Positions 3,289 through 24,839 are shown, counted from the first letter of the stretch. The stretch: DNA of 64,000 nt from Calditrichia bacterium (GCA_963777955.1 CAVZSQ010000017.1:231737-295736), one strand, 5' to 3'. Notes: a model not told the origin generated them from the letters alone. Numbers and translations are program-made.

Positions 3289-3660
3289 ATGGCAAAATCC
3301 CAAAAGTATAACGCCCGGCCTGTTACTTCGCTATTGATCGTCGCCGGGGCGGTCCTGCTGGCTGTGATCATCGGACAGTTAACCCCCCTGCTTAATTTGG
3401 AATTGAACTTACTGGATTACCGCTTTAAGATCAGGGGCACGCAAAGTGTGGTCAAGTCACCAATAGTCATTCTGGCCATCGATGATCAATCGGATGAATC
3501 AACACCGGCCCGCTGGCCCTGGCCGCGCAGTTATTATGCCCACGTCATTGAGAATCTGAATGAAGCCGGCGTAAAAGCGATCGGCATCGACGTCATATTC
3601 GATCAGGCCGATCAGAATGGTGCGCAGTCGGATAGCCTGCTGGTCGAGGCTCTCAGATAA
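3289..3660 (+). CDS. CHASE2 sensor domain, N-terminal fragment of a CHASE2-adenylate/guanylate cyclase (frameshift ~3655)
   Basis: TM helix followed by CHASE2-like sequence (ILAIDDQSDE...WPWPRSYYAHVIENL). The reading frame breaks at 'agaTaaatat'; removing one T restores ...EALRKYKNVVLAG. Confidence 0.6.
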   Translation: MAKSQKYNARPVTSLLIVAGAVLLAVIIGQLTPLLNLELNLLDYRFKIRGTQSVVKSPIVILAIDDQSDESTPARWPWPRSYYAHVIENLNEAGVKAIGIDVIFDQADQNGAQSDSLLVEALR

Positions 3661-5452
3661 ATATAAAAACGTGGTGCTGGCCGGGAAAATCGATATTCCG
3701 GCCGGTGGCCGCACCGATATGGCCACACTGGTTCCTCCCTATGAAATTTTTCGTCGGAGCGGAGTACAGTGGGGCCTGGTCTCCTTCGACCTGGATCAGG
3801 ATGGATTTTACCGCCGTTATCTGGTTGGACAAAATTATAATGACAGCCTATATTCTTCTTTTGCCACACAATTACTCAGAATATATAAAGGTATTCCTGC
3901 GCAGGTCACCCTGGCCGACAGCGGAAGTTTTTTTCAGTTAGACACTTTTAAGATTCCCAAAATAAACAGTTATTCGACATTGATTAATTATGCCGGACCG
4001 GCCGGCACTTTCCGGCAATATTCTTTTGATGCCGTGCTCGATGATGAAGATTTCGATCTGATCGAAGAATATGATCTGGATGCTTTCAGCGATATCGGTG
4101 ATATTGCCAGTGGTATTCCGCCGGGTCTGTGCTGCTCCGGGGATTTAAAGGATAAAATCGTCCTGATCGGTTCCACCATGAAGGAATTGCACGACGATTT
4201 CCCCACCCCTTTTCTGGAAGTGCGGGATGCCCAGGGTCGATCCAGTAAAGTGCTGACCAACGGAGTGGAGATCCATGCCAATACCCTGAATATGATTCTA
4301 AATCAGCAATATCTCCGGCAGATTTCTTTCTGGTGGCAGATAGCCATTCTGGTTTTACTGGCCATTGCTGTTTATTTCCTGACCCGGTTTTTACCCACTT
4401 TCTGGGGGATGTTGATAACTATAATTATTGCCCTGGCTTATTTTGGGCTGGCTTTTGTTTCCTTTTCATTCTGGAGTACAATTATTGAGCTCAGTACGCC
4501 GATACTGGCCATAGCTTTTGCTTACCTGGGCCAGACGGTTTATCAGTACATCCTGTCGCAGAAAGAAAAGAGATGGATCCAGGATGCCTTCAGCCATTAT
4601 GTTCCGGCCAAAGTGGTTAAGGAAATCGTCAAGGATCCGGACAAGTTAAAACTGGGCGGCGAGGAACAGGTGGTTACGGTGCTATTTTCCGACATCGCCG
4701 GGTTTACACCCCTCTCCGAAAAAATGAGTCCGGCTGAGCTGGTCCGTCTGCTGAATGAATATCTGACCGAGATGACCGATATCATCCTGGCCAATGAGGG
4801 TATCATCGATAAATATGAAGGGGATGCCATCATGGCCGAGTTTGGCATTCCGGTCAATTATGCCAATCATCCATATATGGCCTGTAAAGCAGCACTGCTG
4901 ATGCAGCAGCGCCTGAAATTTTTACGGCAAAAATGGCAGGATGCCGGTAAACCGGTAATCAAGGCCAGGGTGGGCATCAATACCGGCAATGTCATTGTCG
5001 GCAACATGGGCTCGCGCGATGTGCTGGATTATACGGTGATGGGTGATAATGTAAACCTGGGCGCCAGGCTGGAAAGCGCCAATAAATTTTATGGTACCAG
5101 TATCATGATCAGTGATTTTACTTATGAATACGTCAAAAATGATTTCTACACACGCGAACTGGATTCAATCCGCGTGGTTGGTAAAGCAAAACCGGTGAAA
5201 GTTCATGAATTAATCGCTTTTAAAGATGAAAAATTAAGCGATAATTTTATGCAGTTATTGGAAAAATACCAGGAAGGTCTGCAATTCTATAAAACCCAGA
5301 AGTGGGATAAAGCCATCACGACATTTGAAGCCTGCCTGCAGTTAGTACCGGACGACACCCCTTCGGCCGAATACCGTACCCGCTGTATCGAGTATAAATT
5401 CAACAGTCCGGGACCGGATTGGGATGGTGTTACGGATCTGAAGGGCAAATAG
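3617..5452 (+). CDS. CHASE2-linked class III nucleotidyl (adenylate/guanylate) cyclase, main part
   Basis: CHASE2 continuation, two TM helices, then a cyclase catalytic domain (VTVLFSDIAGFTPLSE...EGDAIMAEFG...GINTGNVIVGNMGS) and a C-terminal TPR-like tail. Confidence 0.7.
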   Translation: MVRSRIACWSRLSDKYKNVVLAGKIDIPAGGRTDMATLVPPYEIFRRSGVQWGLVSFDLDQDGFYRRYLVGQNYNDSLYSSFATQLLRIYKGIPAQVTLADSGSFFQLDTFKIPKINSYSTLINYAGPAGTFRQYSFDAVLDDEDFDLIEEYDLDAFSDIGDIASGIPPGLCCSGDLKDKIVLIGSTMKELHDDFPTPFLEVRDAQGRSSKVLTNGVEIHANTLNMILNQQYLRQISFWWQIAILVLLAIAVYFLTRFLPTFWGMLITIIIALAYFGLAFVSFSFWSTIIELSTPILAIAFAYLGQTVYQYILSQKEKRWIQDAFSHYVPAKVVKEIVKDPDKLKLGGEEQVVTVLFSDIAGFTPLSEKMSPAELVRLLNEYLTEMTDIILANEGIIDKYEGDAIMAEFGIPVNYANHPYMACKAALLMQQRLKFLRQKWQDAGKPVIKARVGINTGNVIVGNMGSRDVLDYTVMGDNVNLGARLESANKFYGTSIMISDFTYEYVKNDFYTRELDSIRVVGKAKPVKVHELIAFKDEKLSDNFMQLLEKYQEGLQFYKTQKWDKAITTFEACLQLVPDDTPSAEYRTRCIEYKFNSPGPDWDGVTDLKGK

Positions 5453-5559: not shown

Positions 5560-7120
5560 ATGTTAAAAAAGCGTATTCTTTGGGCCGATGATGAAATCGA
5601 ATTACTGCAATCGCATATCCTGTACCTGCAGACCAGGGGATATGAGGTGGAGACGGTAACCAACGGTGATGATGCCATCGGCAAATTCAGCCGAGGGTAA
5701 TTTCGATATCGTGCTGCTGGACGAGATGATGACCGGCAAGGATGGCCTGGCCACACTGCAGGAGATCAAAAACATCTCACCGCAGATCCCGGTGATCATG
5801 ATCACCAAAAATGAAGAAGAACGGTTGATGGAGGATGCCATTGGCCAGAAAATCGATGATTACCTGACCAAGCCGGTCAATCCCAGCCAGATTTTATTAG
5901 CCTGCAAAAAAATTCTGGACAGCAAGAATATCGCCACCGAGCAAAAAAGCCGGAAATACACGGAAGAATTAAAGCAATTTTCGGAACAGTTATCGAGCCC
6001 ACTGAATCATAAGGACTGGATTGAATTGAATTTAAATTTATTCAAATGGGACCTGGAAATTGACAGTTCGATGGAGCCGCAGTACCGCGAGATCTTCAAT
6101 GACCAGCGCCGGGAATGCAACGTGGAATTCGGGAAATACATCGAGAAAAATTATCAGAACTGGATCTGGAAAAAAGAGGAGTCGCCGCTGCTGTCCACGG
6201 ACCTGGTTAAAAAATATGTCATCCCGGAACTGCGGCAGAAGCAAAACGTGATCCTGCTGGTCATCGACTGCCTGCGCCTGGATCAATGGCTGGTGCTGGA
6301 ACCGTTTTTTTACGATTACGTCAATGTAATCCGCGATTATTATTTTTCGGTACTGCCGACGGCCACCCCTTTTTCGCGCAATGCCATTTTCAGCGGGTTA
6401 TTCCCTGAAGAAATCGAAAAAAAATATCCGGAGTTATGGGTCAGGGACGATGAGGATGAAAATAGTTTGAACAAATACGAGAAGGAGTTGCTCGAACAGA
6501 ATCTGCAGCGTAATGGTATTAATCTGGAGCGCGGGATCAAATATATCAAAATCATGAATAACGACGATGCCAGATATCTGGAGAAGAATCTGAACTCGTT
6601 TATGGATACCCCCCTGCTGGCAATTGTCCTGAATTTTGTCGATGTGCTGGCGCACAGCCGTTCCGATCTGCCGATCCTGAAGGAAATTGCTCCCAATGAA
6701 TCGGCCTATCGTTCGCTGACCCGCAGCTGGTTTGAGCATTCCCCGATGTTTAATGTGATGAGAGAACTGGCCAAATCCAACCGCAGCTTTTTCATCACCA
6801 CCGATCACGGCAGCATCCGGGGGATGCGCGGCACCAGGGTGATCGGCGACCGGGAATCATCCACCAATCTGCGTTATAAGTATGGCCGCAGTCTGAAAGT
6901 CGAAAGGAAAAATGCCATTTATGTCAAGAATCCGTCTGATTTCAAACTGCCCAGGCGCGGGATCAATACGACGTATATAATTGCCAAGGAAGATTATTAT
7001 TTCATTTATCCCACCAATTATAATAAATACTTAAATTATTACAAGGACAGTTTTCAGCATGGCGGAGCCTCGATGGAGGAGATGATTTTACCGTTCATCC
7101 GCCTGGAGCGGAAGGGTTAG
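5560..7120 (+). CDS. porX: PorX-family T9SS response regulator: CheY-like receiver + PglZ (alkaline-phosphatase-like) domain. Frameshift at ~5695
   Basis: MLKKRILWADDEIELLQSHILYLQTRGYEVETVTNGDDA... then, after a +1 shift, ...NFDIVLLDEMMTGKDGLATLQEIK...IPVIMITKNEEE...DYLTKPVNPSQILL. Near-identical architecture and motifs to P. gingivalis PorX. PglZ motifs VIDCLRLDQW, TATPFSRNAIFSG, TTDHGSI. Confidence 0.8.
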
Positions 7121-7564
7121 ATGAAACAGGAGGTACTGATTATCCGGGAAGTGGCCGATCAAAAGGAATCATCCGCCTTCGCCGCCGAAGCGGTCGCCTT
7201 CTTTGAGGCGAATGATACGATTTTACTTTACGGCGAACTGGGCAGCGGCAAGACTTTCCTGGTGAAGGAATTTGCCCGGTTACTGGGTTCGCAGCATCCG
7301 GTCAGCAGTCCTTCTTTTACCATTGTGAATCAGTACAGCGGAAAATTTCTGATCAATCACATTGATCTATACAGAATTTCCGACCTGCGTGAAATACAAA
7401 ATTTAGGATTGGATGATTTCTGGGACAGGGGGTATATAAATTTTGTGGAGTGGCCGGATATAATCGAATCAAGTATTACCTGGCCGCATTTCAGAATTAA
7501 TATCGAAGCGCATTTTCCGTTAAAATACTGGCGCAGGTTCAGGTTAAGCCGCCATGCCGGATAA
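7121..7564 (+). CDS. tsaE: tRNA t6A37 threonylcarbamoyladenosine biosynthesis protein TsaE
   Basis: P-loop LYGELGSGKTFLVKEFARLLG. YjeE-family size. Followed by tsaB and rimI. Confidence 0.8.
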   Translation: MKQEVLIIREVADQKESSAFAAEAVAFFEANDTILLYGELGSGKTFLVKEFARLLGSQHPVSSPSFTIVNQYSGKFLINHIDLYRISDLREIQNLGLDDFWDRGYINFVEWPDIIESSITWPHFRINIEAHFPLKYWRRFRLSRHAG

Positions 7565-8216
7565 TCCATTAGTACTGGGCCTGGACACTTCCGGGATAAA
7601 GTGCCTGGTGGCACTGTGGCGGGATAATCAGGTTCTATACCAGCAGACCGTGACAGCACCCAATCTGCATTCGACCCTGCTGGCCGGCCTGGTCGGCGGC
7701 GGATTGCAAGAACTGCAACTGGAACCTGATGCGGTGCAATTAGTGTGTGTAACCTGCGGACCGGGTTCTTTTACCGGGTTGCGTATCGGGATGGCTTATG
7801 CCAAGGGATTCTGCTTTGCCCTGCAGATACCGCTGATAGCAGTGACAAATTTTGAATTACTGGCACTGCAGGTACAGGATCGGGCCAGGCCCATTTTTGC
7901 CCTGATCGATGCCCGCCGGGAATCCTGTTACCTGGGTATCTTTAAGCAGAGTCCGCAGGAACTTGCTGAATATAAAATTGTGCAGATATCCGAACTGGAT
8001 CAGCACATCGGGGCAGAAGGGTGTATTGTAATTGAAGCACGGCAGGATGGCGCCGGGTGCAATTTACCAGCGGAGTTAAAAGACAGGATAATCCGGGTCA
8101 GCAGCGAACCGGGCGGTATCTGCCGGTTGGGCTACCTGAAATATCAACGGGGAGAACAGGCTGATCCGGCTCAGTTAGAGCCTTTATACATTCAGTCGTT
8201 TGCCGGGGTGTTATGA
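7554..8216 (+). CDS. tsaB: tRNA t6A biosynthesis protein TsaB (YeaZ)
   Basis: LGLDTSGIKCLVAL...GPGSFTGLRIG motif. Overlaps tsaE. Confidence 0.8.
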   Translation: MPDNPLVLGLDTSGIKCLVALWRDNQVLYQQTVTAPNLHSTLLAGLVGGGLQELQLEPDAVQLVCVTCGPGSFTGLRIGMAYAKGFCFALQIPLIAVTNFELLALQVQDRARPIFALIDARRESCYLGIFKQSPQELAEYKIVQISELDQHIGAEGCIVIEARQDGAGCNLPAELKDRIIRVSSEPGGICRLGYLKYQRGEQADPAQLEPLYIQSFAGVL

Positions 8217-18085: not shown

Positions 18086-18718
18086 ATGACAAAAACTGCT
18101 GCTGATGGTACTCTGACCCGGGCCGCGGCCAGAACCCAGCCCACGGATGAAGAGTTGATCGCCCGGTTTCAGGGTGGAGATGTTTATGCCTATGAACAAC
18201 TGGTGCGCAGATACAAGGAGCCTTTACTAAATTTTATCTTTAGATTTATCGGGGAGCTGGCGGAGACTGAAGACATTGTACAGGATACATTATATCGTGT
18301 TTATAAGAACAAGCATTATTACAAGGAAGTGGCAAAATTTTCCACCTGGATTTATACCATTGCCAGCAACCTGGCCAGGACAGAATTACGGCGGCGCAGA
18401 CGGAAGCGGTTTTTTTCCATTAATAAAGAAGCGCCCAATGAAAAAGAAGTGGAACTCCCGGATCTAAAAGCAGATCCCGAAGTTGAAGCTAATACTATTG
18501 TAACCGAGAAAATTATTCAGAAAGCAATAGGAAAGTTACCGCAAAAATTCAGACAGGTAATAGTTTTACGTGATATTCAGGGATTTTCATATGAGGAGAT
18601 CAGCAGTATAATAAAAGTCCCGCTGGGCACTGTAAAATCGCGGGTCAATCGCGCAAGACTCCGCTTACAGGAAGATCTGGGATTTTTATTAGATGATATT
18701 GACGATATTGCCAATTAA
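18086..18718 (+). CDS. ECF-type RNA polymerase sigma-70 factor
   Basis: Sigma70 region 2 (DIVQDTLYRVYKN...) and region 4 HTH (FRQVIVLRDIQGFSYEEIS). Confidence 0.85.
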   Translation: MTKTAADGTLTRAAARTQPTDEELIARFQGGDVYAYEQLVRRYKEPLLNFIFRFIGELAETEDIVQDTLYRVYKNKHYYKEVAKFSTWIYTIASNLARTELRRRRRKRFFSINKEAPNEKEVELPDLKADPEVEANTIVTEKIIQKAIGKLPQKFRQVIVLRDIQGFSYEEISSIIKVPLGTVKSRVNRARLRLQEDLGFLLDDIDDIAN

Positions 18719-18727
18719 GCGAGGAGA

Positions 18728-19234
18728 ATGCCTATGGGTGATTGTAACAGACTGAATGAACATATTTCTGACTACCTGGAGAAGACTCTGGACCCGGCCA
18801 TGCGGGCAGAGTTTGAGCAGGGTCTGGAACGCTATCCTGAATTAAAACAATCCACCGGCCAGGTTAAAAAATTAGCCGCACTGCTGGGGAAATTACCCGG
18901 GCGAAAATGTTCGGATGATTTTGTGCCCAAACTGCGGCAGAGAATAAGTTCGGCAGTACCGCAAAAATCCAGGCAACCGAACCTGCGCAGGTATTCCTGG
19001 GCCTTTTCGTTTGTAGTCGTTGCACTGGTCGCCCTGGTCGGGATCAATGCTTTGCTGACCAGGGAAAAAACCGTACCGGCCTTGCCCGCGGTAAATGAAT
19101 TCCAGCCGGCCCCGACGTCGGTTTCCGGCGGCGCGGTGAATGATCCGGCCGGGGTATACTCCCCAGGCAGTCTCTGCCGGTACCGGAAACGAAGTGGATA
19201 TAAAAACCCGCGCCGAGAGCAGAATGGTGACTGA
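18728..19234 (+). CDS. Anti-sigma factor (zinc-finger/RsiW-like, single TM), cognate to the upstream ECF sigma
   Basis: Immediately downstream of the sigma gene. N-terminal anti-sigma helix. TM segment WAFSFVVVALVALVGINALL. The 3' end is uncertain and may carry a frameshift. Confidence 0.55.
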   Translation: MPMGDCNRLNEHISDYLEKTLDPAMRAEFEQGLERYPELKQSTGQVKKLAALLGKLPGRKCSDDFVPKLRQRISSAVPQKSRQPNLRRYSWAFSFVVVALVALVGINALLTREKTVPALPAVNEFQPAPTSVSGGAVNDPAGVYSPGSLCRYRKRSGYKNPRREQNGD

Positions 19235-19414: not shown

Positions 19415-20650
19415 ATGATTCGACTAATATTTATCATTGCCTTAGCCTTCCTGGGAATCTTTGTAAATCCTTTCCAGCCGGGAGTATGGGATTTTGTTTT
19501 TCGTTTTTTAGTTTTCGTGCTGATCATTTATTTACTGTTTAATTCCGGATTCCTGCCGGGCCGGAAAAGAGAGGATCTTCCGGCCGACCAGCGGCCGGCA
19601 GCGGTCCAGGAGCAGAAGTTGAACCTGGAAGAGCAGGTGTTCCAGGAATACCATCTGCCTGATCTGCTGGTTTATGATGAACGGACCATGCGCTACCTGA
19701 TCGATCAGTTCGAGGTGATTGCCAGCCTGGCTTTTCCGGACCAGGGCTGGATTTTCCTGAAGCAAGACCCGCATAAACTGAAGAAGATCTATTATAAAAA
19801 TTTTACCCAGGCGACGCTGGCAGGTTTACAGGAGGAATATGATCTGACCGGTCTGACGCAGATACTGGCTGAAAAAAATACAATTCTGATAGAAAACAAT
19901 CTGAATCAGGAAACACAATTGGTAAATTTCTATAACCCGGCCGAATACAAGCCCAATTCTTTTATGGGGATTCCGCTGCGGATCGAAGAAGAGGCGCCAT
20001 TATTTTTCATTTTTGATGCGGCGCATAAGGAAAATTTCAATGCGGCGGATCAAACCTTGTTTGAGAAAATCAGGGATAATACGGCCATTTTTGTACTGAA
20101 CCGGCTTAAAGCCTATTCTCTGTTGAGTACGCTCAGGACACAAGAAAAATTACTGAAACTGGCTGTGGATCTGAACAGCAGTAAAACGATTGCCCAGGCC
20201 CTGGAAAAATTTGCCCGGGTCATGGCACATCAATTTGAGGCTTCGCGGCTGACGATCAGTCTGGCCAAACCCAATTCGAATGTTGCCGTCATCAGAAAAG
20301 TGATCGGCCAGGGGGATGAATTCGCCGAGAATGTGGAATTTCCGGTGGATGAAGGCTTGACCGGCTGGGTCATCAGCAAGAAGAAACCGTATGTGATTGA
20401 AGACCTGGAAAAAGGGGAGTATTTTATACCGCGTTATACCAAACAGGAAAAGACCAATTACGGTTTCCGCTCATTTCTGGGCGTACCGCTGCTGGTGGAG
20501 GAGCGCGTTTTCGGAGCGCTGACCCTGGAGCATAGCCTGCCCTATAAATACAACAATGCTGTTCTGGACGAGGTCAAGACCTGGGCCCAGGTCTTCAGCA
20601 GCACCTTCGGCCGCCAGACCAGCGAGCCCGCCAAATCCAGCGATGTTTAA
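19415..20650 (+). CDS. Membrane-anchored GAF domain protein (hypothetical)
   Basis: Two N-terminal TM helices, then a GAF-like fold near the C-terminus (LTGWVISKKKPYVIEDL...). No output domain recognised. Confidence 0.5.
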   Translation: MIRLIFIIALAFLGIFVNPFQPGVWDFVFRFLVFVLIIYLLFNSGFLPGRKREDLPADQRPAAVQEQKLNLEEQVFQEYHLPDLLVYDERTMRYLIDQFEVIASLAFPDQGWIFLKQDPHKLKKIYYKNFTQATLAGLQEEYDLTGLTQILAEKNTILIENNLNQETQLVNFYNPAEYKPNSFMGIPLRIEEEAPLFFIFDAAHKENFNAADQTLFEKIRDNTAIFVLNRLKAYSLLSTLRTQEKLLKLAVDLNSSKTIAQALEKFARVMAHQFEASRLTISLAKPNSNVAVIRKVIGQGDEFAENVEFPVDEGLTGWVISKKKPYVIEDLEKGEYFIPRYTKQEKTNYGFRSFLGVPLLVEERVFGALTLEHSLPYKYNNAVLDEVKTWAQVFSSTFGRQTSEPAKSSDV

Positions 20651-20670
20651 AGCGATTGCCTATAAAGGAA

Positions 20671-20767
20671 AAGGACTCTTTACGCTTCACATTTGGTCAG
20701 GGAATTAAGGGGCTTGGGGATGACCCTGAACAAATTTACTTCGTGTCGCAGAAGTAAAGAGTCCTTC
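20671..20767. terminator. Long imperfect hairpin between convergent GAF-protein and receiver genes
   Basis: Outer arms aaggactctttacgcttc / gaagtaaagagtccttc and inner arms acatttggtcaggg / ccctgaacaaattt. An A-tract on the plus side gives a U-tract for the minus-strand transcript. Confidence 0.4.
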
Positions 20768-20829
20768 AGGAGTGTATCATGAGGGCTTTAGTATGCTTCT
20801 TTTACTCGTTAAATTTCTCCTCTGTTTAA

Positions 20830-21213
20830 TTATTGCCGCATATGCAGACTGCGGAAAGTAGTCCAGCGGTCAATGCAATGGCGCAGGAATTTTATCTTGA
20901 ACGGTTCCTGCATCAGGGCGATCAGTGAATCGGACTGCAACTTGGTGCTGTCGGTCAGTTGTCCCCCTGCCGAAATATATATAATCGGAATTCGTTTACT
21001 CACCGGATTGGAACGCAAACGGGTCAGCATTGCGCTGCCGAGCTTGGGTGCGAATTGCTCGTTGAGAATAATAATAGCCGGTTTATGATTTTCGATCTGT
21101 TTAAACAGATCAAGATTTCTGTTAATGGTTATCAGTTGTAATTTGTAGACATTAAGCAGATCGTTTAGAACCTTGGCCCGTTCGGCATCCCCGTCACAAA
21201 TCATAACTTTCAT
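20830..21213 (-). CDS. Single-domain CheY-like response regulator receiver protein
   Basis: MKVMICDGD...Acidic pocket and conserved K (PIIYISAGGQ). 127 aa, no output domain. Confidence 0.7.
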   Translation of the reverse strand: MKVMICDGDAERAKVLNDLLNVYKLQLITINRNLDLFKQIENHKPAIIILNEQFAPKLGSAMLTRLRSNPVSKRIPIIYISAGGQLTDSTKLQSDSLIALMQEPFKIKFLRHCIDRWTTFRSLHMRQ

Positions 21214-21228
21214 CGTGATTCCTTCTAT

Positions 21229-21441
21229 TTAACAGAATTCTTTGTCATGAATAATTCTGGCCCGAATCGCTGAATCCAGAACTTTGGGCAGATCTTCCAG
21301 TATTTCATCGATGCTGTTGCGATAAACCGTCAGCGCATCGGTTTCCGAAAAAATGACCCGGATATTATAATACCTTCGCCCGTTTTCATCGGACAGAGCA
21401 TTAATATCGACTTTGCTTTCCAGTATATTATTTGTCATCAT
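21229..21441 (-). CDS. Small hypothetical protein (70 aa), co-transcribed with the downstream receiver
   Basis: GAGGAAG RBS 7 nt upstream. A 15 bp gap to the receiver gene. Preceded by a sigma-54-like promoter. Confidence 0.5.
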   Translation of the reverse strand: MMTNNILESKVDINALSDENGRRYYNIRVIFSETDALTVYRNSIDEILEDLPKVLDSAIRARIIHDKEFC

Positions 21442-21474
21442 GAAATCTTCCTCTTCATCTGCTGAAATATTAAA

Positions 21475-21490
21475 GACAAGAACCGTGCCA
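21475..21490 (-). promoter_or_regulatory. Candidate sigma-54 (-24/-12) promoter upstream of the small ORF + receiver operon
   Basis: The minus strand reads TGGCACggttcTTGTC with correct GG-N10-G(C/T) spacing, about 35 nt upstream of ATG 21441. The -12 element has GT rather than the consensus GC. The sigma-54 activator is encoded immediately upstream. Confidence 0.4.
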
Positions 21491-21582
21491 GACTATAACT
21501 TATATAATAACAATAAGTTGAGTTGTATAATCGCTAACTGATAGTTAAATAAGGGGATAGATACCTTTTAGATCGGGTCGAT

Positions 21583-21628
21583 TGTATAAAATACAATTTA
21601 AAGATCAGGGTAATTGTAAAAAATACAA
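21583..21628. promoter_or_regulatory. Pair of palindromic TTGTA-N5-TACAA sites (candidate activator UAS)
   Basis: ttgtataaaatacaa (21583-21597) and ttgtaaaaaatacaa (21614-21628). Centres are 31 bp apart and lie about 100-130 bp upstream of the candidate sigma-54 promoter. Confidence 0.4.
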
Positions 21629-21633
21629 AAGTG

Positions 21634-22974
21634 TTAGTCCTGCAGTTTATTCTGCAGGGTGCGGTAATTTATATTCAGGAATTTACAGGCTTCTTTTTTA
21701 TTCCCGTTAAAGTGGGCCAGCACGGTATGGACATAATCCCGCGATATATCGTCCAGAGTATGTTTGCGCAGCAAGGCCTGCTGCAGAAAAATATCGTCAC
21801 TTTGTTTCAACTCTGCCGGCAGGTCGCTCAGACTGAGGGTACTGGAATTAAGGATCAGCATTCGTTTTAAAGTATTTTCCAGCTGGCGGATATTTCCTTC
21901 CCAATTCAGTTTTGACATGAAACTGATCAACTGCGGATCAATTTTAGGCAAGGGCAATTCGTTTTCCTGGCAATATTTCTGGGTGACATGATCGATCAGT
22001 GCCGGGATATCATCCGGCCGGAAGCGCAAGGGCAGAATGTGGATGGGTATCACGTTGAGCCGGTAGAACAGATCTTCACGAAATCGCTTGTCTTTGACTT
22101 CCTGATTCAGATCTTTATTGGTTGCGGCGATCAGGCGGGAATCCGATTTTATTTCCGTGGAACCGCCCAGATGATAAAACTTTTTCTCCTGCAGCACCCG
22201 TAATAATTTCGCCTGCAAACTGACCGGGATATCGCCGATCTCGTCTAAAAAGAGTGTTCCTTTTGCGGCCAGTTCGATTTGGCCCTTCTTCAGATCGGTG
22301 GCTCCGGTAAAGGCCCCTTTCTCATGGCCGAACAGTTCATTTTCCAGCAGGGTTTCCGGCATGGCCGCGCAATTGATGGCGATAAACGGACCCTTGTGCG
22401 CTTTACTGCGGGCGTGAATATGCCTGGCAATTATTTCCTTGCCCACCCCGGATTCGCCAGTAATCAGAACGGTTTCAGTGCTTTTACTGATCTTTTCGAT
22501 CAGGGCCAGGATATTTTGCATGGGTTTGCTGACCGCCACGATATCTTCGAAATTAAATACCCGGTCCAGACGCTGCCGCAGTTTTTTATTCTCGCGTTTT
22601 AAGCTCAGCATTTTGAAGGCCCGGCTGACCAGGAAAGGCAATTCCTCCTGAATATTTTCTCCTTTGGAAAAATATGAATTAGCTCCCCGCTGCTGGGCTT
22701 CCAGGGCGACCTGATGATCGCGGGAAGAAGTGATCACAATTACTTCGGCATCTGTCCCGGCGGCCATTATCCGTTCCAGCACAACGAAACCGTCTTCGAT
22801 GCGGGGAATGCCCAGGTCAAGAATAACCAGGTCGGGGAGTTCTTCGCTAAAAATTTTTAAGGCCTGGTCAACCTCGCTGGTTTCGCGGTAGACATACTGA
22901 TCACCCAGCCATTTTTTATAACTTTCCCGCCAGACTAAATTGTCTTCAATAATTAAAATTTTATTTTTCAGCAT
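21634..22974 (-). CDS. Sigma-54-dependent transcriptional activator (NtrC family response regulator: receiver + AAA+ + HTH)
   Basis: Receiver domain. AAA+ Walker A GESGVGKE. GAFTGA motif (HEKGAFTGA). ESELFGHEKGAF-type region. C-terminal Fis-type HTH. Confidence 0.9.
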   Translation of the reverse strand: MLKNKILIIEDNLVWRESYKKWLGDQYVYRETSEVDQALKIFSEELPDLVILDLGIPRIEDGFVVLERIMAAGTDAEVIVITSSRDHQVALEAQQRGANSYFSKGENIQEELPFLVSRAFKMLSLKRENKKLRQRLDRVFNFEDIVAVSKPMQNILALIEKISKSTETVLITGESGVGKEIIARHIHARSKAHKGPFIAINCAAMPETLLENELFGHEKGAFTGATDLKKGQIELAAKGTLFLDEIGDIPVSLQAKLLRVLQEKKFYHLGGSTEIKSDSRLIAATNKDLNQEVKDKRFREDLFYRLNVIPIHILPLRFRPDDIPALIDHVTQKYCQENELPLPKIDPQLISFMSKLNWEGNIRQLENTLKRMLILNSSTLSLSDLPAELKQSDDIFLQQALLRKHTLDDISRDYVHTVLAHFNGNKKEACKFLNINYRTLQNKLQD

Positions 22975-24064
22975 ATTCTTCTTCCAGAGGTAAACAGATG
23001 GTGACCTGTACGCCGCCGCTGGCGATATTACCGATCGACAGGTTTCCGTAATGGGCCTGAATGATTTTTTCGGCGATGGCCAGTCCCATGCCGACCTTGC
23101 CCTGGTCCTTTAACGTGGTAAAAAGTGGTTCTTTGACTTTGCCGAGGAATTCTGCCGGTATGGCCGGGCCGTTATTAATGATATTCAATTGTACCCAGTC
23201 ATGAGGAATAAACAGAGAACGGTTGCTTAAACGGTTAAAATTAATCTGAGCTTTGCCGTGCACCAGTCCGGCATAATAGACTGAATTTTCCAGAACCGCC
23301 AGCAGGGCCCGGTTGATCAGTTCCAGATCAACTGACAGGCGCATCGGTTCCTGAGCCGCCGCAGGGCTGTTATCTTTAATTTCGACAGGGGTGGAAAAAT
23401 TAAGCAGAATCGCCAGCAGCATATCGTGAACAGTGATGGAAATCCTGGACATTTCGGTTTCAGAAAGGTAAAAAAGAAAGTCACGGGTCAGCCTTTTCCC
23501 ATAAATTAATTTCTGCTGCACGCTGTCATTTTGAACATCCAATATGGATATAATGGCGATCAGCGAATTAAAATCGTGGGTTATATTGCTGATATATGCC
23601 CCGCACTGTTTGTGCGCGGCGACGGCCGAGAGATGGGCGGCGTGGCTCAGGTATTTGAACATATTCTGCGCCTGGCCGGTTAAACTGATCAGGGCCTGTT
23701 TGGCGGTTGGGCCGGCCCGGGCAGCCAACAGTATGTAAGTTACGCGCTGCCGGTGATCTTTAAAGGGGAAAATAAAATAATCCTTTAGTTCGTAAAAAGA
23801 TTGTTCCCGGCCACCGCGGTCGCCGAAGGCATATTTTTTCAGATCCAGGCCGGTCAGCATTTGCAGGGCCTGTTCGGCAAAAACACCGGGTGTGCTGATC
23901 CGGTAAGGCCAGGGTGAATAGGAATGCTGCAGCAGGGCAAATGCCAGATCGGGAAATTTTTGCTGCAGATAGCGGCAGAATTGCTCCGGCATGTTCTGCT
24001 CGTTCAAACACCCGGATTGCGATTCGATAAAATCCACGATCGTGGACTGGTCATGCGCCGGCAT
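22961..24064 (-). CDS. Sensor histidine kinase (cytoplasmic), partner of the NtrC-family regulator
   Basis: H-box region (ISNITHDFNSL) and HATPase_c G-boxes (GKVGMGLAIAEKII). Overlaps the RR start by 14 nt. Confidence 0.75.
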   Translation of the reverse strand: MPAHDQSTIVDFIESQSGCLNEQNMPEQFCRYLQQKFPDLAFALLQHSYSPWPYRISTPGVFAEQALQMLTGLDLKKYAFGDRGGREQSFYELKDYFIFPFKDHRQRVTYILLAARAGPTAKQALISLTGQAQNMFKYLSHAAHLSAVAAHKQCGAYISNITHDFNSLIAIISILDVQNDSVQQKLIYGKRLTRDFLFYLSETEMSRISITVHDMLLAILLNFSTPVEIKDNSPAAAQEPMRLSVDLELINRALLAVLENSVYYAGLVHGKAQINFNRLSNRSLFIPHDWVQLNIINNGPAIPAEFLGKVKEPLFTTLKDQGKVGMGLAIAEKIIQAHYGNLSIGNIASGGVQVTICLPLEEEYAEK

Positions 24065-24068
24065 CAGT

Positions 24069-24839
24069 TTAGTGCTCCTTGGATTTATTCCAGATCAGGT
24101 CCAGTTCAGCCAGTTTAGCCTGTTTCATTTTTTCATAATCCTGCTTAAAATATTCTTCGATAAACTGAAAGCGTTTGATAAATTTTTCATTGGTCAGCCT
24201 GAGGGCATCTTCAGCTGCCAATCCCAGAAAGCGCGATAAATTGACCAGGCTGAAAATAATATCCCCCAGTTCTTCCTGCATGTTCGCGCGATCTTCTTTC
24301 TGTAAAGCCTGTTTAAGTTCCCTGATTTCCTCTTCTACTTTATCCAGGACTCCGCTCAGTTCAGGCCAGTCAAAATTCACGGTGGCGGCCTTTTCCTGAA
24401 TGCGCTGGGCCCGCAGCAGAGCGGGCAAATTTAGCGGGATATCGGCCAGCAGGGAGGATCGCTTTTCCTTGTTTCGCTTTATCTGTTCCCAGTTATGGAG
24501 AATATCCTTGACGCCGTTTACCGGAAGATTGCTGAAGACATGGGGATGGCGTTCGATCATTTTGACCGTGATCGCCTCGATAACCTGTTCCAGGGTAAAA
24601 TGGTTCTGTTCGGCGGCTATCACACTCTGCAAAATGATCTGCAACAGCAGGTCTCCCAGTTCCCCTTTCAGTTTATCATGGTCAGCCTGGTCAATGGTCT
24701 GCAGCACTTCATAGGTTTCTTCCAGGATGTACTGGCGCAGGGACCCGGCTGTCTGCTGGCGATCCCAGGGACATTCGCGGCGAAGTTTTTCGATAACCTC
24801 GACCAGGGTGGCAAATTTGGAAGCTGTGCTTTCGCTCAT
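24069..24839 (-). CDS. mazG: Nucleoside triphosphate pyrophosphohydrolase MazG
   Basis: Two MazG EExxE repeats (LEETYEVLQTID, QEELGDIIFSLVNL). Confidence 0.85.
   Translation of the reverse strand: MSESTASKFATLVEVIEKLRRECPWDRQQTAGSLRQYILEETYEVLQTIDQADHDKLKGELGDLLLQIILQSVIAAEQNHFTLEQVIEAITVKMIERHPHVFSNLPVNGVKDILHNWEQIKRNKEKRSSLLADIPLNLPALLRAQRIQEKAATVNFDWPELSGVLDKVEEEIRELKQALQKEDRANMQEELGDIIFSLVNLSRFLGLAAEDALRLTNEKFIKRFQFIEEYFKQDYEKMKQAKLAELDLIWNKSKEH

Follow-up and report, generated by a model that had tools for sequence, protein, structure and literature searches.

Among the sigma-54-dependent circuits described to date, the one closest in architecture to the locus considered here is the AtoS-AtoC/atoDAEB system of E. 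coli, in which the genes for a kinase and its activator are followed, in the same orientation, by the sigma-54 target operon, and where the upstream activating sequence (UAS) is an inverted-repeat pair bound by the activator (PMC3118216). The locus in question is a cassette of genes on the minus strand of a 64,000-nt stretch of DNA from a Calditrichia bacterium (GCA_963777955.1 CAVZSQ010000017.1:231737-295736); this whole stretch is referred to below as the window and all coordinates relate to it. As in the atoDAEB case, the genes for a histidine kinase and an NtrC-type activator are here directly followed by the putative target, with paired inverted-repeat sites for the activator. However, the dyads differ in sequence from those of atoDAEB, and the output consists of an orphan protein, a pseudo-receiver and a structured RNA rather than a catabolic operon. 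Further, although AtoS and AtoC are the top NCBIfam matches of the kinase and the activator, the scores obtained (59 vs 646 bits and 390 vs 714 bits, respectively) are far under the equivalog cut-offs, and hence it will be incorrect to interpret these proteins as orthologues of AtoS and AtoC.

A second system of relevance is NtrB-NtrC/glnAp2, where a regulatory small RNA, GlnZ, is released from the 3' untranslated region (3'UTR) of the sigma-54/NtrC-dependent glnA mRNA (PMC9731577). The Calditrichia locus shares with glnAp2 the tandem activator sites located more than 100 bp upstream of a -24/-12 promoter, but it differs in that its activator scores 372 bits vs the NtrC cut-off of 558.6 bits, no nitrogen genes are found nearby, and the processing and trans-action of the Calditrichota RNA are only putative. 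ZraS-ZraR/zraP is likewise a sigma-54 two-component system, with a small accessory protein as its main output, which in turn exerts feedback on the system. The present locus is similar in combining a two-component sigma-54 activator with a small-protein output, for which feedback can be hypothesized, whereas zraP is transcribed divergently and encodes a periplasmic product. Lastly, the pseudo-receivers (viz. FrzS, domains of KaiA and CikA, and the plant PRRs) have a receiver fold without phospho-acceptor chemistry and work by protein-protein contact. The 127-aa protein of the cassette resembles them in having kept the fold and lost the acceptor chemistry, and FrzS is among the structural matches of its model; unlike them it is a stand-alone protein of 127 aa with the signature RHxIDRWTTFRSL, and no sequence relationship to them beyond the generic receiver fold was found.

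The regulatory architecture itself is a textbook, already known design. The main result reported here is that the genes for a 70-aa orphan protein and the 127-aa pseudo-receiver probably have a sigma-54 promoter that is activated by the adjacent activator protein through two dyads, as suggested by comparison of the window with some 30 related loci of Calditrichota, drawn from genomes and metagenomes (labelled L0xx). The three outputs, viz. the 70-aa protein, the pseudo-receiver and the structured RNA, are by database comparison new sequence families without a Pfam or Rfam family of their own, the RNA being the most novel part.

Organization of the cassette

The genes of the cassette are all on the minus strand, in the order mazG, histidine kinase, NtrC-type activator, spacer, 70-aa open reading frame (ORF) and 127-aa ORF. 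The features of the cassette are as follows.

24069-24839, minus strand: mazG, nucleoside triphosphate pyrophosphohydrolase (Pfam MazG 1.7e-36; NCBIfam PRK09562 303.5 bits vs a cut-off of 208)
22961-24064, minus strand: sensor histidine kinase (Pfam HATPase_c 1.4e-12)
21634-22974, minus strand: NtrC-type enhancer-binding protein, with receiver (REC), AAA+ sigma-54 interaction domain and Fis-type helix-turn-helix (HTH), from Pfam
21442-21633, minus strand: spacer of 192 bp between the activator and the 70-aa ORF
21614-21628, no strand: UAS dyad 1, TTGTA-N5-TACAA, TTGTATTTTTTACAA, centre at about -157 from the predicted start
21582-21596, no strand: UAS dyad 2, TTGTA-N5-TACAA, TTGTATTTTATACAA, centre at about -125 from the predicted start
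21496-21520, minus strand: A/T-rich block CAAC-N17-GTTA in conserved alignment columns, a short distance upstream of the -24 element
21475-21490, minus strand: putative sigma-54-type promoter TGGCAC-N5-TTGTC, TGGCACGGTTCTTGTC, the only match in the window
21447-21453, minus strand: ribosome-binding site (RBS) GAGGAAG, 5 nt before the ATG, GGA core conserved in the alignment
21229-21441, minus strand: ORF of the 70-aa orphan protein, under purifying selection
20830-21213, minus strand: single-domain pseudo-receiver of 127 aa, receiver fold with the acceptor chemistry lost
20659-20783, minus strand: conserved structured RNA at the 3' end of the operon, from a covariance model

Most of these features had been described in the original prediction and they are present in the sequence. 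The kinase gene overlaps that of the NtrC-family activator on the minus strand (by 14 bp, with Pfam domains found), the activator contains the GAFTGA motif, the Walker A motif (GESGVGKE) and the Fis-type HTH (Pfam HTH_8 5.8e-09), and downstream of it are the 192-bp spacer (21633-21442), the TGGCAC-N5-TTGTC element on the minus strand with -24/-12 spacing (21475-21490), the GAGGAAG RBS (21453-21447), and a small protein of 70 aa (21441-21229) that matches no known family.

In the kinase, the HATPase_c domain scores 48.5 bits vs the Pfam cut-off of 26.4, the G1/F/G2 boxes are visible in the translation, and its PDB matches are to histidine-kinase catalytic domains only. The Pfam domain HisKA was not detected in it; an H-box-like stretch, ITHDFNSL, can be recognized by eye about 75 residues before the matched ATPase stretch. 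The protein appears to be cytoplasmic, with no membrane-spanning segment evident by eye, and its N-terminal domain of about 150 aa is uncharacterised. The activator shows the Pfam domains Response_reg (1.1e-17), Sigma54_activat (4.3e-70) and AAA_lid_14 in addition to HTH_8, all above the cut-offs, as well as the sequence ENELFGH, and its phospho-acceptor Asp53 (VILDLG) aligns with Asp57 of CheY. The orthologous activators carry either GAFTGA or GAYTGA. Since its score for the PEP-CTERM regulator (378 vs 502.6 bits) is, like those for AtoC and NtrC given above, under the NCBIfam equivalog cut-off, the activator is not an orthologue of any of these three proteins.

The mazG gene is directly upstream of the kinase gene, with 4 bp between them, and it is probably co-transcribed with the kinase and activator genes. 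The order mazG-kinase-activator, with gaps of at most 4 bp or overlaps, is retained in L011, L024, L025, L029 and L030, and the complete order (mazG, kinase, activator, 70-aa gene, pseudo-receiver gene) is retained down to 45-59% protein identity. On the sequence evidence, the cassette is a chromosomal, phylum-conserved two-component/sigma-54 module.

Conservation of the dyads and of the putative promoter in the spacer

Both palindromes of the form TTGTA-N5-TACAA reported earlier are present, with two corrections: they are spaced 32 bp start to start (17-bp gap) rather than 31 bp, and their lower boundary is at 21582 rather than 21583. The degenerate dyad pattern TTGYA-N5-TRCAA occurs 3 times in the window vs 0.19 expected, a number reached in 0 of 100 shuffles, and two of the three matches fall within the spacer. 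The third match, TTGCAAGAACTGCAA (7704-7718), is probably due to chance, as it is located within an unrelated ORF (7554-8216, plus strand) and lacks a partner dyad or a promoter-like motif. In the promoter element, the GG at -25/-24 is part of TGGCAC (21490-21485), and the dinucleotide at -13/-12, which is correctly spaced 10 nt after the GG, is GT instead of GC. With the GG at -25/-24, transcription is predicted to start near 21464, giving a 5'UTR of about 23 nt and the dyad positions listed above.

The phylogenetic footprint is based on the window and 27 loci with enough upstream DNA. In all of these, two dyads 31-33 bp apart are found right after the stop codon of the activator gene, and dyad 1 is conserved in all loci with upstream DNA. 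In nearly all loci, 145-150 bp separate the centre of dyad 2 from the ATG (140 in L028), the distance from it to the GG of the GG-N10-G element is 100 bp (97-101) in all loci measured, and the last base of GG-N10-G[C/T/A] is mostly 32-36 bp before the ATG (27 in L028). In some lineages both half-sites of dyad 1 have changed symmetrically: for example, it reads TTGCAG...CTGCAA in L008 and TTGCAC...TGCAA in L029, a T to C change in one arm being matched by A to G in the other, as will be expected of a site that is read by a dimer. The HTH segment INYRTL of the activator, which is identical in the window, L011, L024 and L025, fits with the unchanged dyad half-site.

In the alignment, the dyads, the A/T-rich block, the -24 and -12 elements and the RBS form islands of conservation, the remaining spacer being variable (ungapped identity of the spacer 35-77%). 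This conservation cannot be attributed to low divergence, because the synonymous divergence (dS) in the adjoining 70-aa ORF is about 1 or saturated even in comparison with the closest relatives. The reverse strand of the A/T-rich block, TAACAATAAGTTG, is one mismatch from the integration host factor (IHF) consensus WATCAANNNNTTR, and 10 of 17 distinct lineages have an IHF-like site with one mismatch at this position, 72-74 bp before the ATG. The block is a candidate DNA-bending site centred at about -50, where an IHF-like protein might act.

In the promoter itself the GG is invariant in all orthologous loci, and TGG[CT]A[CT]-N5-TTG is found in all except L011, which has AGGCAC-N5-TTGC. The base at -12 varies. 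Among the distinct orthologous promoters, 8 read TTGT, 7 read TTGC (L011, L012/23/24/27, L021, L022, L026, L028 and L030/31), and 2 read TTGA (L017/18 and L029). The strict form TGG[CT]A[CT]-N5-TTGC has 10 matches in 164 kb of the related loci, both strands included, and all 10 are at the promoter site. The element is thus a conserved promoter of the -24/-12 type in which the C at -12 is not invariant. Earlier, the promoter had been called tentative because of the GT at its -12 element; with seven distinct orthologous promoters reading TTGC at the same position, this worry is resolved. The description of the locus as a self-contained enhancer-dependent circuit, with the activator acting on the adjacent promoter, likewise agrees with the dyad/promoter geometry, which is kept in the 27 loci at a dS of about 1 or more.

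A structured RNA at the 3' end of the operon

The original prediction gave the cassette an extent of 20830-24064, and its listed features are in place there, but the unit runs on past the lower end to a conserved structured RNA (20659-20783). This RNA lies in the interval from the stop codon of the pseudo-receiver gene to the convergent GAF gene, and it is almost identical across lineages whose synonymous sites are saturated. On its 5' side there is an invariant single-stranded CUCCU. A 14-bp closing helix is formed by pairing of GAAGGACUCUUUAC (20767-20754) with GUAAAGAGUCCUUU (20683-20670), followed by the U-rich UUUUCCUUUAU, and a U-rich tail after the RNA is present in all lineages. Inside, a helix CAGGG/CCCUG closes an invariant 21-nt C-rich loop (UCAUCCCCAAGCCCCUUAAUU, 20728-20698; UYAUCCCCAAGCCCCUU..), and there is also a lineage-specific inner hairpin.

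The covariance model scores 141.5 bits on the minus strand of the window vs 15 bits on the plus strand, and in 20 loci it finds exactly one copy per locus, always on the strand of the operon. Of the cells, 95.5% are paired, vs at most 59% when the partners are slid; 8 pairs show compensatory changes, and none of 500 shuffles reaches the observed values. The single-sequence fold has an energy of -35.8 kcal/mol (z = -4.9), and the strand is fixed by the G-U pairs. No Rfam family matches the RNA (best 14.8 bits, E = 6.3, vs gathering scores of 41-70), and an Rfam scan over 4.6 kb gave nothing relevant at E up to 1. Other identities considered for the element can be set aside: neither a tRNA nor a tmRNA was detected, it is not a dispersed repeat (single copy in the window), and it is not coding, as a 1-nt indel in L017/L019 shifts the frame and the nucleotides stay conserved.

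On the transcribed strand the stable stem is immediately followed by the U-tract, as in an intrinsic terminator; a simple terminator scanner missed it, because the structure is not a short hairpin. We infer that the RNA is co-transcribed with the operon, of whose transcript it would form the structured and certainly terminator-like 3' end. By analogy with GlnZ it is possibly also a 3'UTR-derived small RNA. However, it is quite possible that the element is only an unusually long intrinsic terminator, or a stabiliser of the 3' end, with no role in trans, since in every lineage a U-rich tract directly follows the closing helix, the minimum-free-energy structure takes the form of a single long, interrupted hairpin, and the clade of L011 and L025 has just a simple hairpin and a U-tract at this position. 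What a terminator does not need are the invariant 21-nt loop and the 5' CUCCU in a molecule whose stems covary, and the RNA is kept whatever gene is downstream. It also stays with the 70-aa/pseudo-receiver pair where this pair has left the kinase and activator (L019, L032). A more specific proposal, viz. that the RNA is released from the 3'UTR and acts in trans through the C-rich loop and the CUCCU (e.g. on Shine-Dalgarno regions) or by binding both proteins, is speculative and on balance doubtful.

Two further observations concern the region after the pseudo-receiver gene. In distant relatives a third ORF is found right after this gene, encoding a hydrophobic micropeptide of 23-33 aa with the conserved sequence M-E..Y...Q...KG.x.KDD (L011:3787-3880, L021, L024, L025, L029:6400-6498 and L030:6393-6494). 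It is absent from the window, whose clade has lost it; an SD-like GGAGGA remains about 10 nt after the pseudo-receiver stop codon (20812-20824), with no start codon behind it. The clade of L011 and L025 lacks the structured RNA (covariance-model E >0.5), and downstream of its micropeptide ORF there is a short hairpin with a C-rich loop followed by a U-tract (L025:6733-6790, GCAUCC-CCUCCGUCUCCU-GGAUGC, and likewise in L011), which may be a reduced or replaced version of the RNA element.

Probable sigma-54 dependence of the promoter

The sigma-54 dependence that we infer for the promoter, and the binding of the activator to the dyads, have to be weighed against a number of observations that speak against them. 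In the window, the -12 base is T and not the consensus C, and the pattern TGGYAY-N5-TTGY is found once vs 0.99 expected, so that it is not significant by itself in a single window and the significance of the promoter rests on its conservation. There is no terminator between the activator and the 70-aa gene, and some read-through is possible. In L019, L020 and L032 the 70-aa gene, the pseudo-receiver gene and the RNA are located away from the kinase and activator (70-aa protein 79% identical), and there the dyads and GG-N10-GC are lacking and a conserved TGATATAAT extended -10-like motif (TTTGATATAAT) is found instead; sigma-54 control is thus not obligatory for the 70-aa/pseudo-receiver pair. 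A six-frame search of the window and of 164 kb of the related loci for an RpoN-box peptide gave no match, and rpoN was not found in the window. A search of the literature on Caldithrix/Calditrich* with sigma-54 or rpoN found nothing relevant, and the output functions proposed below are without homology support.

In regard to rpoN, the presence of sigma-54 across genomes matches that of its activators near-perfectly, and both are almost always present in diderm bacteria with lipopolysaccharide (PMC3162934). Based on this match, and on the intact and conserved GAFTGA/GAYTGA motif of the activator, the source genome would be expected to carry rpoN.

One can also suppose that the 70-aa operon is transcribed from a housekeeping-sigma promoter, or by read-through from mazG-kinase-activator, with the dyads serving as operators of another, dimeric regulator and the GG-N10-GT being incidental. 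The chance expectation of about one such pattern per window, the missing -12 C, the missing terminator and the one lineage whose copy of the gene pair has no dyads but a TGATATAAT-type motif would all be in keeping with this. However, all 27 other loci retain both GG-N10-G and its spacing from the ATG despite saturated synonymous divergence, with TTGC in 7 distinct promoters, and the dyads are always directly after the gene for the enhancer-binding protein, at a distance typical of enhancers. A sigma-70-type promoter was also looked for in the spacer and rejected, as no such site is found on the minus strand and the TATAGT adjoining TGGCAC on its upstream side is not conserved. Transcription of this kind is highly unlikely to account for the locus, and a sigma-54 promoter activated by the adjacent protein remains the reading that we prefer.

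The two proteins encoded by the operon

The 70-aa protein is acidic and is predicted to consist of three strands followed by one long helix (AlphaFold2 model, pLDDT 77). It has no match in Pfam, NCBIfam or PADLOC, and in PHROGs there is one weak match of no known function. In 5.8 billion proteins it has 11 close clusters, and a profile search of 1.84 billion representatives gave 7 matches, comprising 3 full-length proteins, 1 truncated, 2 apparent chimeras and 1 spurious low-complexity match; its genome matches are all in Calditrichota metagenome-assembled genomes. The ratio of nonsynonymous to synonymous divergence (dN/dS) is 0.01-0.04 in comparison with close relatives and 0.10 with the distant L021, which indicates that the ORF is a real gene. 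In these comparisons the protein reads as a phylum-restricted orphan under strong purifying selection. In Foldseek searches with its model the best PDB match is Pur-alpha (E = 0.04, TM score 0.42), and at E up to 0.001 there was no match in the viral library. The Pur-alpha and double-stranded RNA-binding domain (dsRBD) entries should not be interpreted as a link to RNA, as the TM scores are <0.5 and the E values >0.01 (for dsRBD, E at least 0.2 and TM at most 0.46) and the protein is acidic. In the two apparent chimeras, P0016 and P0017, an unrelated N-terminus is joined to the C-terminal helix region of the family (..IYRNSIDELL.DLPQ.L..AIRARI..), that of P0016 being ArsC/Spx-like by eye; they could be real fusions or artefacts of assembly or frameshift.

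The 127-aa protein had been described as a CheY-like single-domain receiver, and this holds for the fold: its AlphaFold2 model (pLDDT 78) matches Spo0F, DivK and RR468 with TM scores of 0.77-0.79 (Foldseek E about 5e-7 to 1e-6). It does not hold for the chemistry, as the phospho-acceptor Asp is absent, and the Pfam Response_reg score (24.5 bits) is below the cut-off of 30.2. Alignments to CheY and RR468 place Asn51 at the phospho-Asp position and Glu103 at the position of the conserved Lys (Lys109), and the acidic pocket is degenerate (D-G in the window), its second acidic residue being lost; its first residue (D or E) and a Ser at the T87 position are kept. Among the 31 members aligned of the 69 found, the acceptor column is nearly invariant for N, the exceptions being H in two of the aligned members and D in L008/L009, the Glu at the Lys109 position is invariant across the family, and the C-terminus bears the signature LRHxIDRWTTFRSL. 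By these residues the protein is a pseudo-receiver.

The role of a phosphate sink, raised in the original prediction, is made unlikely by the Asn in place of the phospho-Asp, the Glu in place of the Lys and the degenerate acidic pocket. One could argue from the receiver fold (TM 0.79), from the Asp of L008/L009 and from the retained pocket residue and Ser that the protein is nonetheless a working receiver, using a non-canonical residue or, in some lineages, Asp, and that it is a sink for phosphate from the kinase; but the near-invariance of Asn, with His in two members, the invariant Glu, the loss of the second acidic residue and the sub-threshold Pfam score make this highly unlikely. The other role suggested earlier, viz. 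that of a second-tier regulator, is possible, and for a pseudo-receiver one would naturally hypothesize a protein-protein role in feedback or relay.

In L020 a true kaiB (L020:9-377; Pfam KaiB 93.9 bits) precedes the unit by about 300 bp. KaiB binds pseudo-receiver domains. No kaiB is found in the window or in any other locus compared, and the link, while suggestive, is for now best regarded as a coincidence, since kaiB is present in L020 only.

Proposed mechanism

That the promoter is sigma-54-dependent but activated by an enhancer-binding protein encoded elsewhere, the dyads serving for roadblock or autoregulation, is conceivable in that such proteins can act on distant targets, yet it merits hardly any credence, as strict linkage at a fixed geometry holds for the activator gene, the dyads and the promoter throughout the phylum, the lineage in which the gene pair has moved from the activator has lost the dyads along with the promoter, and a scan of the window found no similar dyad upstream of mazG or the kinase gene.

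Under the preferred reading, in which the adjacent activator acts through the two dyads, the kinase would sense a signal via its N-terminal domain and phosphorylate Asp53 of the activator, which would then assemble on the two TTGYA-N5-TRCAA dyads, spaced by some three helical turns and directly following the stop codon of the activator gene itself. An IHF-like bend in the A/T-rich block near -50 may help it to reach the sigma-54 holoenzyme at TGGCAC-N5-TTGT, where hydrolysis of ATP by the activator would open the promoter, and transcription would proceed from near 21464. The resulting transcript is predicted to encode the 70-aa orphan protein and the pseudo-receiver and to include the structured RNA with its terminator-like stem and U-tract. 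The suggestions for the output are tentative: the pseudo-receiver, perhaps with the 70-aa protein, might dock on the kinase or another partner for feedback or relay, and the RNA might serve as a 3'UTR small RNA or a protein-binding element.

Neighbouring genes

The cassette has conserved flanks, consisting of hom and a FAA-hydrolase gene on one side and of genes for a GAF protein, an anti-sigma factor and an extracytoplasmic function (ECF) sigma factor, as well as holA, on the other. Converging on the cassette in the window are the ECF sigma factor (18086-18718), the probable anti-sigma factor (18728-19234), whose counterparts in L029/L030 carry zf-HC2, and the GAF protein (19415-20650), which has a hydrophobic N-terminus and is probably membrane-anchored; this neighbourhood is conserved across Calditrichota. 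Another signalling pair in the window, unrelated to the sigma-54 cassette, comprises a CHASE2-adenylate/guanylate cyclase protein (3617-5452) and, after it, a PglZ-domain response regulator (5669-7120). The latter was considered as a second enhancer-binding protein in the window, but it is a REC-PglZ protein and not an AAA+ activator.

Significance

The locus provides a clean and testable case, in which phylogenetic footprinting backs the predicted enhancer sequence together with its geometry, as well as the promoter and the candidate bend site. The C at -12 is supposed to be near-invariant in sigma-54 promoters. Here it drifts among C, T and A within one orthologous promoter whose other elements are fixed, and the set of these promoters can be seen as a natural experiment in how the -12 position is recognized. 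If the RNA turns out to be a regulator derived from the 3'UTR, then the GlnZ-type design, in which a small RNA is embedded in a sigma-54 mRNA, would extend to a distant phylum, and if it acts in trans after its release, there would be a direct route from two-component signalling in Calditrichota to a new riboregulator.

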